Positions 4,494 through 9,539 of a stretch of 11,573 nucleotides of DNA are shown here, one piece after another; the stretch's first letter is position 1, and each line of letters opens with the position of its first letter. The DNA comes from a virus: UHGV virus genome UHGV-1580203; one strand, given 5' to 3'. Made by a program: the position numbers and the translations under genes. The notes beneath the pieces are model-generated. The model had not been told where the DNA came from. It ran no database searches and saw only the letters and a list, made by a program, of their open reading frames with translations.

Positions 4494-4997
4494 ATGGACA
4501 AATTTGATAGAAGTGCACAAAGGCAGTTGTTACAAATACTGTATGATGCTCATCCTTATGAAATTTCTGATGATGCGTTGCAGTCTGTTCGTGACGCATT
4601 TGGAGATGATAATGTCCTAATTTCGAACTTAATTTATCTCGAAGAACATGGCTTGATTAAGAATGCTCTTGATTATTACTTGGATGGCATAAATATAAAT
4701 ATTCCTGAATTAAGAATTACTAAAGATGGAATTGATTTCATTCGTGATGATGGAGGTCTTAAAGCTATTCTTGGGATTATGACAATAAGATTGCATGATG
4801 AGACTCTCTGTGAACTTGAACGTATCATCAATAGTTCTACTTCTGCCACGACTGAAGATAAGAAGAAATTACTCTCTCAGCTTCGAACGCTTCCTGCCGA
4901 CGCCATAAAACAGCTGACGATTCGATTACTTGGTCAGGGGCTTGACCATCTGCCGGACGTATTTCACGTAATTCAAAAAGCCCTCCATTCTCTGTAA
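4494..4997 (+). CDS. Orphan 167-aa protein, unknown function (AT-rich moron in the immunity-adjacent slot)
   Basis: Uninterrupted 167-codon frame through visibly A/T-rich DNA with A/T-ending codons, opposite in orientation to the flanking early-left operon; followed by a plus-strand intrinsic terminator at 5175-5198; no family recognised. Confidence 0.6.
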   Translation: MDKFDRSAQRQLLQILYDAHPYEISDDALQSVRDAFGDDNVLISNLIYLEEHGLIKNALDYYLDGININIPELRITKDGIDFIRDDGGLKAILGIMTIRLHDETLCELERIINSSTSATTEDKKKLLSQLRTLPADAIKQLTIRLLGQGLDHLPDVFHVIQKALHSL

Positions 4998-5198: not shown

Positions 5199-5364
5199 GT
5201 TGCTAACGAATCATCCTGGACTTCATATGCCCCAGGCGGCTACTTCGTGGGCGTCCTGCCTGTTCGTTTTTGACATTTACTGACTGCTTACGACACATGC
5301 ACCGTGTTGCAACCAGATTTTGTTGTAATCCTGTAGTTGGTCTGGAACAAAAGATAAAATTAAA

Positions 5365-5401
5365 TTGCGAGATATGCAAGTGATATTTGCGAGATATGCA
5401 A
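5365..5401. promoter_or_regulatory. OL-like operator pair: two identical 15-bp sites TTGCGAGATATGCAA separated by 7 bp, with overlapping leftward promoter (pL-like)
   Basis: Seen: exact direct repeat at 5365-5379 and 5387-5401; same TTGCGNGATANGCAA pattern as the site at 6169-6183 in the cI-cro intergenic region; minus-strand TTGCAT -35-like hexamers lie within the sites. Confidence 0.6.
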
Positions 5402-5410
5402 ATTTATAGG

Positions 5411-5435
5411 TAATAAAAAGCCACCTTTCGGTGGC
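5411..5435 (-). terminator. Rho-independent terminator downstream of cI
   Basis: On minus-strand RNA: GCCACC-GAAA-GGUGGC (6-bp stem, GNRA-type tetraloop) followed by UUUUUAUUA; 20 nt downstream of the cI stop. Confidence 0.65.
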
Positions 5436-5455
5436 CGATGGATGGGATATTGAGG

Positions 5456-6148
5456 TTAATTATGTCTCTTAAGGGTTTGCGACTGACTGATTAAGACCTT
5501 TCCAAAGACCATGAATCGGTGTTCGTTTTCGCTAGTAATTCCCCATTCACGGTAAATCTGGTTATCAGAAATCACCAGCAGTTTGTCAGGAATCATTTGA
5601 AGTCTTTTAACGTATATTTTGTCATCAAAACCAAAGACATATATACCATCACCATCAAACTGATTGATGCTGACATCAACGAAGATGAGATCTCCTGGCT
5701 CAATGGTTGGACACATACTGTCCCCACGAACGTTGATAACTTTGATGTGATTGGCTGGTCGTCCGCCGAACATTGATACAGCATTATCAGTTCTGTATTC
5801 GATGGCATGAATCACATCAATGACATCACCGCCCTGGATAAGGCCATTTCCCGCACTGGCACTGATATCCAGCATTTCAATACGGAACACATCCTTCACC
5901 TGCGCAACATCCTCATTATTACTGTTTTTATATACAGTATTACTTTTGTGGGCAGAGGTAAAGAGATCAGCAATATCAACACCTAAGCTCTTGGCAATAT
6001 TACTCAGTGTTTGTTCGGTAAATTGTTTTTGCTTACCCGTTTCTAAGCGCGAGATGTTCGCCGCATCTACTCCTATCGCTTCAGCGAGATCGGCGATTTT
6101 CATGTTCTTCGCTTGGCGAAGTTGTCTGACTCGGTTTCCTATGTTCAT
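5456..6148 (-). CDS. cI: CI-type prophage repressor (N-terminal HTH, C-terminal LexA-like S24 autopeptidase domain)
   Basis: 230 aa; N-terminal HTH (VRQLRQAKNMKIADLAEAIGVDAANISRLETGK); C-terminal GDSM (catalytic Ser) and VKRL (catalytic Lys) motifs of the S24 family; divergent from a cro-like gene. Confidence 0.93.
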   Translation of the reverse strand: MNIGNRVRQLRQAKNMKIADLAEAIGVDAANISRLETGKQKQFTEQTLSNIAKSLGVDIADLFTSAHKSNTVYKNSNNEDVAQVKDVFRIEMLDISASAGNGLIQGGDVIDVIHAIEYRTDNAVSMFGGRPANHIKVINVRGDSMCPTIEPGDLIFVDVSINQFDGDGIYVFGFDDKIYVKRLQMIPDKLLVISDNQIYREWGITSENEHRFMVFGKVLISQSQTLKRHN

Positions 6149-6245
6149 GCGTTTATTACATTTCTTTATTGCGTGATAAGCAAATCAACTTGCGCAAAAT
6201 AATTGCGTGAAATAACATGCATAACGCGCAATATTTGGAGGGCGT
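6149..6245. promoter_or_regulatory. OR region with divergent PRM/PR-like promoters and about three operator sites
   Basis: Sites fitting TTGCGNGATANGCAA at 6169-6183 (best), 6203-6217 (weaker) and 6217-6231 (inverted); minus-strand -10-like TGTAAT (6155-6160) placed so the cI mRNA would start at or near its AUG (no SD upstream of cI); GGAGG RBS at 6237-6241 for cro. Confidence 0.65.
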
Positions 6246-6506
6246 ATGCAATCACCATTACGAAATGTGCGTAAGGCGCATGGTTTCACTTTGCAGCATG
6301 TTGCTGCGGGTGTTCAAGTCAATCCAGCGACGTTGAGTCGTATTGAGAGGCTGGAGCAGATTCCATCTATCGAGCTTGCAGAACGTTTAGCCAATTTTTT
6401 TAAGGGTGAAGTCAGCGAAATGCAGATTCTTTATCCGGCACGTTTTCAATCTAGCCAAAACCAGAATGGGTTTAAACCACAGGAACAGGAGGTGAACCGT
6501 GGGTAA
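6246..6506 (+). CDS. cro: Cro-like HTH transcriptional regulator (XRE family)
   Basis: 86 aa; HTH segment GFTLQHVAAGVQVNPATLSRIERLEQ; first gene rightward of the operator region, divergent from cI; GGAGG RBS. Confidence 0.88.
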   Translation: MQSPLRNVRKAHGFTLQHVAAGVQVNPATLSRIERLEQIPSIELAERLANFFKGEVSEMQILYPARFQSSQNQNGFKPQEQEVNRG

Positions 6507-7385: not shown

Positions 7386-7405
7386 AGGTCGGTCATGAGC
7401 ACTAA
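7226..7405 (+). CDS. Candidate small protein (about 59 aa, TTG start) in an alternative frame, not in the supplied ORF track
   Basis: RBS GAAGGAGA at 7211-7218 then TTG at 7226; frame reads [59 protein letters not shown] to stop at 7403-7405; protein-like composition; overlaps the O-like start by 11 nt. Confidence 0.35.
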
Positions 7406-8336
7406 ATTAACCGGCTATGTATGGGATGGTTGCGCTGCATCAGGCATGAAATTATCCAGCGTGGCAATTATGGCCCGCCTGGCTGATTTCAGTAATGACG
7501 AAGGTGTGTGTTGGCCATCAATTGAAACCATTGCCCGTCAGATTGGCGCGGGGATGAGTACCGTCAGGACGGCTATCGCACGGCTGGAAGCAGAAGGCTG
7601 GTTAACGCGTAAGGCGCGTCGCCAGGGTAACCGCAATGCGTCGAATGTTTATCAGCTTAACGTTGCGAAGCTTCAGGCAGCGGCATTTTCTCAACTGTCA
7701 GATTCTGACCCGTCAAAATCTGACGCATCAAAATCTGACCCGTCAAAATTTGATGCGTCGAAATCTGGCAAAAAAGCGGGTTTTCACCCGTCAGAATCTG
7801 GCGGGGATCCGTCAGTAAAATCAAAACATGATCCGTCAGATAAAAAACCTTCTCGTCCGGACGCTTCGCAACCGGACACGCAGACGGATGAACAGGATTT
7901 TTTAACTCGCCATCCTGATGCGGTTGTATTCAGCCCTAAAAAGCGCCATTGGGGAACGCAGGATGATTTGACCTGCGCACAGTGGCTCTGGAAAAAAATC
8001 ATCGCCCTGTACGAGCAAGCCGCCGAATGTGACGGCGAGGTGGTTCGTCCCAAAGAACCGAACTGGACAGCCTGGGCAAACGAAATTCGCCTGATGTGTG
8101 TGCAGGATGGTCGTACTCACAAACAAATCTGCGAGATGTACAGCCGCGTCAGCCGCGATCCGTTCTGGTGCCGTAACGTGCTCAGCCCGTCGAAGTTGCG
8201 GGAAAAATGGGATGAGCTTTCCCTGCGCTTATCACCGTCCGTCAGCACGTACACCGAAAAACGCGAAGACCCGTACTTCAAATCCAGTTACGACAACGTG
8301 GACTACAGCCAGATCCCGGCAGGATTCAGGGGGTGA
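7395..8336 (+). CDS. Replication initiator protein (lambda O-like architecture: N-terminal HTH domain, iteron-encoded linker, C-terminal domain)
   Basis: 313 aa; N-terminal HTH-like segment (WPSIETIARQIGAGMSTVRTAIARLEAEGWL); central low-complexity linker encoded by tandem DNA repeats (see ori feature); RBS GAGG upstream of ATG 7395. Confidence 0.85.
   Translation: MSTKLTGYVWDGCAASGMKLSSVAIMARLADFSNDEGVCWPSIETIARQIGAGMSTVRTAIARLEAEGWLTRKARRQGNRNASNVYQLNVAKLQAAAFSQLSDSDPSKSDASKSDPSKFDASKSGKKAGFHPSESGGDPSVKSKHDPSDKKPSRPDASQPDTQTDEQDFLTRHPDAVVFSPKKRHWGTQDDLTCAQWLWKKIIALYEQAAECDGEVVRPKEPNWTAWANEIRLMCVQDGRTHKQICEMYSRVSRDPFWCRNVLSPSKLREKWDELSLRLSPSVSTYTEKREDPYFKSSYDNVDYSQIPAGFRG
7690..7850. repeat. 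Origin-like iteron array inside the initiator gene: four to five 15-bp tandem repeats (TCTGACSSRTCAAAA) followed by spaced GATCCGTCAG repeats and an A-rich tract
   Basis: Seen: units at 7705-7719, 7720-7734, 7735-7749, 7750-7764 and degenerate 7765-7779; CCGTCAG at 7789-7795, 7810-7816, 7834-7840; ATAAAAAA at 7841-7848. Lambda ori likewise lies within O as iterons plus an A/T-rich region. Confidence 0.7.
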
Positions 8337-8338
8337 TC

Positions 8339-8827
8339 ATGAGTCTTTTGAATGAAGTTCAGAAATTCATTGAAGCCCATCCGGGATGTACTTCCGGAGA
8401 CATTGCGGATGCTTTTGCAGGTTACTCACGGCAGCGCGTTCTGCAGTCAGCAAGCAAGTTACGTCAGAGTGGGCGTGTGGCTCACCGTTGTGAAGGAGAT
8501 ACACGCAGACATTTCCCGCGCCTGACTGAGAGAGCGCAGGAACCGGAACCACAACCAGTTCGAGAAACCAGACCTGTGCGCAATTTCTATGTCGGCACTA
8601 ACGATCCACGGGTGATTTTGTGCCTGACCCGCCAGGCTGAAGAACTGGAGTCCAGGGGCTTATACCGTCGTGCTGCAACCGTGTGGATGGCGGCATTCCG
8701 TGAAAGCCACTCCCAGCCAGAACGAAACAATTTTCTGGCGCGTCGTGAGCGGTGCTTACGGAAAAGCAGCAAGCGCGCTGCATCGGGTGAAGAGTGGTAT
8801 CTGTCAGGGAATTACGTGGGGGCTTAA
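8339..8827 (+). CDS. Hypothetical protein with C-terminal PerC-like motif (putative transcriptional regulator)
   Basis: Start taken at ATG 8339 (RBS AGGGGG; GTG 8333 also possible); C-terminal GLYRRAATVWMAAFRESHSQPERNNFLARRERC resembles the PerC-family signature as I recall it; family call is tentative. Confidence 0.6.
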   Translation: MSLLNEVQKFIEAHPGCTSGDIADAFAGYSRQRVLQSASKLRQSGRVAHRCEGDTRRHFPRLTERAQEPEPQPVRETRPVRNFYVGTNDPRVILCLTRQAEELESRGLYRRAATVWMAAFRESHSQPERNNFLARRERCLRKSSKRAASGEEWYLSGNYVGA

Positions 8828-9153
8828 TGACGACGTTAACTCAATGCCAGCAGCAGGTGCTGGATATGCTGATTTCTTACCAGAAAGAACGTGGCTTCCC
8901 GCCAACCAATCAGGAGGTGGCTACCATGCTGGGATACCGTTCAGTGAATGCAGCGGTGGAGCATCTTCGCGCACTGGAGAAAAAAGGCGTCATCACGATA
9001 AAGCGTGGCGTGGCCCGGGGCATCACGCTTCATACCGCGGTGAAGGACGACGACAGCGAGGTGGCCGGGATTATCCGCGCACTGCTTGCTGGTGAGGAAA
9101 ACGCCAGGCTGCGTGCAGCCCACTGGTTACATGAGAGGGGGCTGAAAGTATGA
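8827..9153 (+). CDS. LexA N-terminal DNA-binding-domain protein lacking the S24 peptidase domain (108 aa)
   Basis: LTQCQQQVLDMLISYQKERGFPPTNQEVATMLGYRSVNAAVEHLRALEKKGVITIKRGVARGITL closely parallels the LexA winged-helix N-domain (LTxRQxEV...GxPPTRxEIAxxLGFRSPNAAEEHLKALxRKGVIEI); start ATG 8827 overlaps the upstream stop (TAATG); no Ser/Lys protease domain follows. Confidence 0.75.
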   Translation: MTTLTQCQQQVLDMLISYQKERGFPPTNQEVATMLGYRSVNAAVEHLRALEKKGVITIKRGVARGITLHTAVKDDDSEVAGIIRALLAGEENARLRAAHWLHERGLKV

Positions 9154-9539
9154 AGCTGATTCTGCCTTTTCCACCCAGCGTGAATACCTACTGGCGACAC
9201 CCCAACAAAGTGGCATTTGCTGGTAAGAGCCTGATAAGCGCGGCGGGGCGAAAATTCCAGAGTGCGGCGTGCACAGCAATAGTTGAGCAGTTACGTCGTC
9301 TGCCGAAACCAACGTCGGCACCTGCTTCAGTGGAGATCGTGTTGTTTCCTCCGGATAACCGGATCCGCGATCTGGACAACTATAACAAGGCGCTGTTTGA
9401 CGCCCTGACCCACGCGGGTGTGTGGGAAGACGACAGCCAGGTGAAAAGAATGCTGGTGGAGTGGGGACCGGTTATCCCGGAAGGGAAGGTCGAGATCACT
9501 ATCAGTAAGTACGAGAAAACGGCGGGTGCAGCCGCCTGA
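9150..9539 (+). CDS. rusA: RusA-family Holliday junction resolvase
   Basis: 129 aa; RIRDLDNYNKALFDALTHAGVWEDDSQV matches the RusA catalytic-region signature (RxRDLDN...FDAL...DD); ATGA overlap with the upstream stop. Confidence 0.88.
   Translation: MKLILPFPPSVNTYWRHPNKVAFAGKSLISAAGRKFQSAACTAIVEQLRRLPKPTSAPASVEIVLFPPDNRIRDLDNYNKALFDALTHAGVWEDDSQVKRMLVEWGPVIPEGKVEITISKYEKTAGAAA

Follow-up and report, generated by a model that had tools for sequence, protein, structure and literature searches.

We identified in an SfII-like prophage arm a functional 108-residue protein in which a LexA-type DNA-binding head is followed, in place of the S24 peptidase domain, by a conserved two-helix tail. The gene lies on the plus strand at 8827..9153 of the window, by which we mean the whole stretch of 11,573 nucleotides that was analysed. 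It starts with ATG at 8827, stops with TGA at 9151-9153, and belongs to PHROG 362, whose 106-position profile is matched over positions 1-106 by residues 1-108 of the product (E=7e-58). The product begins MTTLTQCQQQVLDML and ends HERGLKV, in an intact reading frame. The longest mechanical open reading frame opens at GTG 8794; homologues and public annotations use the ATG at 8827, a start that aligns with Met1 of LexA. DNA-damage responses, mutagenesis and prophage induction all hang on one master switch, the cleavage of LexA, and an uncleavable phage protein with the DNA-reading head of LexA could override this switch inside an induced cell. If SOS boxes are bound, the protein would bear on antibiotic-induced mutagenesis, on the induction of Shiga-toxin phages and on competition between prophages. 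If a private site is bound, it would represent a second, independent recruitment of the LexA domain by a phage for its own circuitry.

Residues 1-69 (8827..9033, plus strand) form the winged helix-turn-helix DNA-binding domain, delimited by Pfam, by alignment to LexA and by a structural model. PF01726 (LexA_DNA_bind) covers residues 1-65 and positions 1-65 of its 65-position profile with E=2.9e-19 and 69 bits, against a Pfam cutoff of 23.7. When PDB sequences were searched with phmmer, the best matches were to E. coli LexA (1lea, 3jso and 1jhh, E about 1e-15), and residues 2-70 of the phage protein aligned without gaps to residues 2-70 of LexA; such agreement lies far outside what chance would give. 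An AlphaFold2 model built from a 16-sequence family alignment reached a pLDDT of 81.6, a single-sequence run having reached only 52, and gave the head helices at 6-22, 28-35 and 40-52 and strands at 56-58 and 66-68 (the wing). Superposed on the LexA of the LexA-DNA complex 3jso, the model fitted with 0.9 A rmsd over 68 residues at 50% identity. Peptidase_S24 had no Pfam match in the protein, which ends at residue 108, and the LexA equivalog profile TIGR00498 scored 67 bits, below its cutoff of 111, over profile positions 1-91 of 203 only. The protein is without any cleavage machinery and, having no S24 domain, therefore does not cleave itself. The original prediction, a LexA DNA-binding domain lacking S24 and hence non-cleavable by architecture, was thus upheld by the PF01726 match, the gapless alignment, the 0.9 A model and the missing Peptidase_S24. 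Its description of the product as that domain only was right about S24 and overlooked the conserved two-helix tail, so the protein is not a bare fragment.

The recognition helix, SVNAAVEHLRALEK, occupies residues 39-52 (8941..8982, plus strand) and was placed by alignment to LexA together with the published contact list (PMC3091678). According to that list, Ser39, Asn41, Ala42, Glu44 and Glu45 of LexA helix III contact DNA (PMC3091678). Four of the five contacts are retained (S39, N41, A42 and E45) and E44 is replaced by V, residues 39-47 reading SVNAAVEHL here and SPNAAEEHL in LexA. Residues A43, H46, L47 and K53 and the wing residues R64-G65-I66 are also identical to those of LexA. The similarity, with four of five contacts kept, is not that of a generic winged helix with different recognition residues, which would have spoken against the original prediction. 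In an alignment of 38 family members with identities down to 39%, drawn from Escherichia, Salmonella, Citrobacter, Cronobacter, Klebsiella, Enterobacter, Atlantibacter and Hafnia, conservation across the family is highest on the DNA-binding surface, at S39, N41, K53 and R64-G65-I66. No member of this alignment has Glu at position 44. At position 45 the Escherichia/Salmonella/Citrobacter clade has E, Cronobacter D and the large Klebsiella clade L (NAVLLH), with T or G in the others, and this variation argues that specificity has diversified and is not locked to the SOS box. Judged by these residues, the head in the Escherichia/Salmonella/Citrobacter clade appears still to resemble that of LexA, with the family as a whole looser.

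The head is joined to the tail by a flexible hinge at residues 70-74 (9034..9048, plus strand), where pLDDT falls below 50 at residues 71-74. The hinge begins at the same residue as the LexA hinge, and its columns in the family alignment are variable in length and poorly conserved. The tail spans about residues 75-104 (9049..9138, plus strand), as seen both in the model, with helices at 75-88 and 93-103 at pLDDT of about 86-88, and in the 38 aligned sequences, where its conservation equals that of the DNA-binding domain. Among these sequences A97 and L101 are invariant and A93 is nearly so, a spacing of i, i+4, i+8, and the hydrophobic residues I82, I83, L86 and L87 of the first tail helix are conserved. 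A93, A97 and L101 share one helical face, with I82, I83, L86 and L87 facing opposite. Searched by itself against Pfam, the tail matched no family, and a conserved tail of this kind therefore marks a distinct family, a LexA head with a helical hairpin, rather than a broken lexA. Because a 30-residue amphipathic hairpin cannot bury its hydrophobic faces alone, we infer that the hairpin would dimerise, probably as a four-helix bundle, and that the tail probably replaces the S24 domain as the dimerisation module. The tail also contains an A88-G89 dipeptide, and in one alignment its LLAGEE lines up with VAAGEP of LexA (A84-G85). A vestigial LexA cleavage site was rejected as an explanation, since other family members do not keep the AG, which lies within or beside a predicted helix, and the catalytic domain is absent.

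The gene is functional and under purifying selection. In IMG/VR, where the sample for alleles and synteny comprised 80 loci with the gene at 96-100% identity, 83 copies resolved into 49 distinct alleles, every one of the 49 intact. These alleles differed by 52 synonymous and 17 nonsynonymous variants (pN/pS about 0.11), and codons 39-47 of the recognition helix carried zero nonsynonymous variants among the 49. On the strength of this selection analysis a pseudogene reading was rejected.

This is no rarity, being a widespread family already annotated by similarity alone; RefSeq names the gene ‘LexA family transcriptional regulator’ or ‘LexA family protein’. Of 5426 complete E. coli genomes, 2691 have, at no less than 95% identity, a 1.2-kb stretch comprising a perC-like gene, the LexA-domain gene and rusA. 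Products of SfII, SfV, SfIV, cdtI, mEp460, Ayreon and many Stx2a and Stx2c phages match the protein with 94-97% identity, and the carriers include serotype-converting phages of Shigella and CDT phages. In the full-text literature we found no experimental work on this enterobacterial family. Stand-alone LexA domains recur across many phage groups. Six proteins of 140-220 residues (P0129, P0130, P0150, P0152, P0158 and P0160) have two tandem LexA DNA-binding domains and no S24, and from this layout they are predicted to be single-chain pseudo-dimers, bivalent by duplication.

The window contains, in order, an integrase, leftward early genes, cI, cro, cII and an O-like replication gene, followed by the perC-like gene, the LexA-domain gene, rusA, a KilA-N gene and a DUF968/HNH gene. 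The cI-type repressor gene (5456..6148, minus strand) encodes Pfam HTH_3 and Peptidase_S24 domains, and in a tblastn search against phages its product was 100% identical to the CI of SfII. Cleavage of CI on SOS induction would switch on the operon holding the LexA-domain gene. The O-like replication gene (7395..8336) contains a 15-bp unit, TCTGACCCGTCAAAA, repeated 4.3 times at 7704-7767 within the initiator-coding sequence; these repeats look like an iteron array, which, by analogy with lambda O, would locate the phage origin in this gene.

Immediately upstream of the LexA-domain gene is a perC-family, yfdN-like gene (8333..8827, plus strand; Pfam PerC E=7.8e-9, PHROG 1324), whose TAA stop shares one base with the LexA-domain ATG (TAATG, 8827). 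Its PerC domain lies at residues 100-151 and its residues 8-70 weakly match a MarR/BilQ-type winged helix, so that two neighbouring genes of the operon code for putative transcription factors. A 650-bp gene for a Dam-type N6-adenine methyltransferase splits this pair in many relatives, SfII among them. Across the 80 IMG/VR loci the perC-like gene accordingly starts at -494, as in the window, where the genes abut (junction 8824..8830), or at -1144 with the Dam insertion. Downstream, the TGA stop overlaps by 4 nt (ATGA) the start of rusA, a Holliday-junction resolvase gene (9150..9539, plus strand; Pfam RusA E=8.5e-15), which starts at +323 in 80 of the 80 loci. The same ATGA overlap is found in relatives with 43-48% identity (L002-L006), and members with 41-48% identity keep an order of replication genes, LexA-domain gene, rusA, Rha-ANT or KilA-N, DUF968 and Q. 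From the overlapping start and stop codons and the lambdoid organisation, the gene is inferred to be expressed within the early right operon after loss of the repressor. Since it sits between the replication genes and the Q antiterminator, its original placement in the ‘nin region’ was fair, as was the statement that it is not a lambda nin gene. In an Enterobacter prophage (L007) with a 135-residue family member (P0138), a 67-residue open reading frame separates the LexA-domain gene from rusA. A PADLOC search for defence systems returned insignificant matches only.

We then consider the DNA sites that such a head might read. Candidates were ranked with a position-weight matrix derived from a set of twenty E. 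coli SOS boxes; its scores serve as a ranking device only. As the original prediction had proposed, the prophage was searched for LexA-box-like sites, and a pattern search gave one strong match, a perfect 20-bp SOS box, TACTGTTTTTATATACAGTA, at 5920..5939 inside cI, which is a candidate target. Its matrix score of 26.8 equals that of the top-scoring training site, and neither the window nor the whole SfII genome has a second strong LexA-type site. Read on the other strand, the box is identical to the E. coli umuDC operator. The box is conserved at one and the same codon position of cI, nt +200 or +206, in 16 of 19 cI homologues with 54-100% protein identity (L089-L107), which represent about eight genera of Enterobacterales (Shigella, Citrobacter, Pseudescherichia, Pantoea, Mixta, Rosenbergiella, Proteus and Serratia) and a record titled Actinomadura. 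It encodes T-V-Y/C-x-x-S in cI, and T-V-H-I-N-S in a Klebsiella phage outside these nineteen (L001, box at 6204). The box lies in the linker-coding part of cI, and the flanking 20-40 nt are unalignable on both sides; a conserved box amid such flanks indicates selection on the DNA site itself. This pattern suggests that the cI-internal box is a functional LexA operator in the phage repressor gene, where it might act, among other possibilities, as a roadblock or as a promoter under SOS control, internal or antisense. No conserved -35 and no internal start codon were evident at the box, and a consensus promoter scan of 5300-6400 was uninformative, giving no sites even between cI and cro, where early promoters have to be. 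We found nothing in the literature on an SOS box inside cI, which is perhaps more surprising than the LexA-domain gene.

Other phage-borne boxes were less regular. About half of the 80 carrier phages had no SOS box scoring 17 or more within 8 kb; the cI site was always present in carriers with an SfII-type cI, and L002-L005 had no SOS box. Of the box-bearing cI homologues, only two came from phages with the LexA-domain gene. Phage-borne SOS boxes were therefore rejected as a general target, half of the 80 carriers being box-free and the cI box occurring mostly without the LexA-domain gene. The gene is an optional accessory, independent both of SOS boxes borne by the phage and of RusA function, and this uncoupling implies that its main targets, if it reads SOS boxes, lie outside the phage. 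Within the window, SOS boxes with one mismatch were not above chance, CTGT/ACAG half-site pairs in other spacings or orientations were not enriched, and no candidate private operator was found, the genes from cro to Q being packed without intergenic space. In about 20 of the 80 IMG/VR loci an SOS-like box lies at the start of a methyltransferase gene, +3.9 to +5 kb from the LexA-domain gene. The example in L020 (12651..12670 of that locus, outside the window), TACTGTAAAAATAAACAGTG, has a matrix score of 22.4 and overlaps the first codons (MKNTVKINSV) of a 350-residue DNA methyltransferase gene between Q and holin. In the Enterobacter prophage L007, an SOS box at 4560..4579 lies about 150 bp upstream of an 82-residue open reading frame preceding the LexA-domain gene and adjoins a divergent RNase_A_bac/CdiI-like gene pair; a second strong box, at 9164..9183, follows the lysozyme gene. 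To judge from its position, the 4560..4579 box may place the LexA-domain gene or the toxin pair under host LexA control in some phages.

Tentatively, we favour a reading in which the protein, dimerised by its tail and insensitive to RecA, serves as a LexA surrogate at SOS-type operators, a phage accessory factor derived from LexA, and we hold this to be quite possible if short of probable. On this model the amphipathic hairpin would dimerise the protein and so provide the bivalency that a LexA DNA-binding domain needs for repression, and a dimer without S24 could not be inactivated by RecA*. The protein would recognise CTGT-type half-sites, as in SOS-type operators. It would be made only once CI is cleaved and the host LexA has just been destroyed, and would bring SOS-controlled promoters back under repression of the LexA kind while the phage grows lytically. 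It might act on SOS genes of the host, on genes under LexA control in co-resident prophages or colicin plasmids and, in this phage, on the SOS box in cI. A LexA DNA-binding domain represses only as a dimer, whatever module dimerises it: a LexA408 domain fused to light-controlled dimerisers represses as a dimer and not as a monomer, with a switch of more than 500-fold (PMC7102963). The tandem-domain proteins likewise obtain their bivalency without S24. LexA-controlled antirepressors of co-resident prophages are established (PMC3121763), and a target class for interference between phages therefore exists.

Taken to its full extent, as an anti-SOS factor, the protein would be a natural uncleavable mini-LexA, dimerised by its tail, that re-occupies SOS operators after RecA* has destroyed both LexA and the phage repressor; this stronger claim we regard as rather unlikely. 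Were it true, host error-prone polymerases and other SOS functions would be shut off, and the LexA-controlled antirepressors, colicins and defence genes of competing elements would be blocked. Being carried by about half of E. coli genomes and by Stx2 phages, the protein would then be a widespread, hitherto overlooked influence on the SOS response, on antibiotic mutagenesis and on prophage cross-induction.

Chief among the alternatives is a reading in which the protein is a dedicated regulator comparable to gp6 of the Bacillus phage GIL01, with a LexA domain that has drifted to a private operator in phage or host and leaves the SOS regulon untouched. It would then activate or repress one or a few promoters, for example in timing late or accessory genes. 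GIL01 gp6 gives the only experimental precedent, with its own palindrome and activation of the late promoter P3 (PMC6182141), and stand-alone LexA-domain proteins are recurrent in phage groups. Recognition-helix positions 44 and 45 differ between clades, half of the carrier phages lack nearby SOS boxes, and the gene next upstream also encodes a putative transcription activator, a member of the PerC family. The same facts weigh on the LexA surrogate, against which it counts that E44 is never kept, that position 45 is variable, that half of the carriers are box-free nearby and that the only characterised phage protein consisting of a LexA domain alone activates at a non-SOS site. However, neither a candidate private operator in the packed cro-to-Q region nor an enrichment of CTGT/ACAG pairs at other spacings was found, although a scan can miss such a site. 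The recognition helix in this clade, moreover, stays near that of LexA, whereas gp6 changed N41, A42 and E45; that gp6, which reads a non-SOS site, altered exactly the recognition positions retained here supports the surrogate. There is also no detectable pairwise similarity to gp6, so that the parallel could only be convergent. We consider a dedicated regulator of this kind possible, if somewhat doubtful.

It is quite improbable, in our estimation, that the protein works through protein contacts rather than sequence-specific DNA binding, either as a partner or targeting subunit of RusA or with its tail docked on a host SOS or replication protein. The rusA gene does adjoin the LexA-domain gene in every locus examined (41-100% protein identity), with the 4-nt overlap in all of them except L007, and the conserved tail is of no known family. 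Against this, rusA genes with 51-70% identity occur without an upstream LexA-domain gene in L001, L094, L098 and L103, and it is the DNA-binding-surface residues (S39, N41, K53, R64-G65-I66) that are most conserved. As related phages have rusA without the LexA-domain gene, RusA does not need the LexA-domain protein, and an obligate partnership was rejected. That the gene is a decaying, functionless fragment of a captured host lexA is scarcely credible. The product does look like a LexA truncation, and LLAGEE aligns with the cleavage-site sequence VAAGEP in one alignment, but the dipeptide AG is not kept in the family, the 49 alleles are all intact with pN/pS about 0.11, the start and stop codons overlap neighbouring genes, and the full-length family, tail included, is maintained down to about 40% identity in at least eight enterobacterial genera.

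Several known systems can be set beside the phage protein. The closest is E. coli LexA itself, whose winged helix is 50-51% identical over 68 gap-free residues, with the start of the hinge and S39, N41, A42, A43, E45, H46 and R64-G65-I66 the same. LexA has an S24 dimerisation and peptidase domain with Ser119, Lys156 and a functional cleavage site, whereas the 108-residue protein has none of these and carries a 30-residue hairpin instead. Residues E44, P40 and R28 of LexA are V, V and N in the phage protein. Unlike lexA, the phage gene stands in an early lytic operon and is not autoregulated from an SOS-box promoter of its own. Proteins of the BlaI/MecI type (Rv1846c, 2g9w; MecI, 1okr) likewise consist of a winged helix and then C-terminal helices, and 2g9w and 1okr appeared as weak full-length structural matches (ranks 13 and 46; rmsd 7-10 A, 12-28% identity); they have no sequence relationship to the window protein, and the analogy is one of layout only. 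The LexA-dimeriser fusions (PMC7102963) share the architecture of a LexA domain, a short linker and a small heterologous dimerising module, and are unresponsive to RecA. These are laboratory constructs with dimerisation-dependent activity, whereas the phage protein has a natural tail whose dimerisation is predicted.

In its biology the nearest system is gp6 of GIL01, a tectivirus of Bacillus thuringiensis, a truncated LexA homologue that activates the late promoter P3 (PMC6182141). It does so from a non-SOS palindrome, GaCACAnnTGTGaC, bound at -43.5 of P3 (PMC6182141). Both are phage LexA DNA-binding domains without the protease, from an early operon after SOS induction, although host and virus type differ. 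The gp6 protein has 66 residues and stops right after the wing, with no tail, whereas the window protein carries one. Its recognition helix reads SHKTAHRY, in which K38 is essential, against SVNAAVEH here, with N41 at the position of K38. BLASTP of gp6 against the window protein gave no alignment at E<=100, and any shared role would therefore be convergent; the two appear to be independent derivations of one idea. Relative to the gp6 precedent, what appears to be new here, from the sequences compared, is the conserved helical tail together with the retention of the LexA recognition residues.
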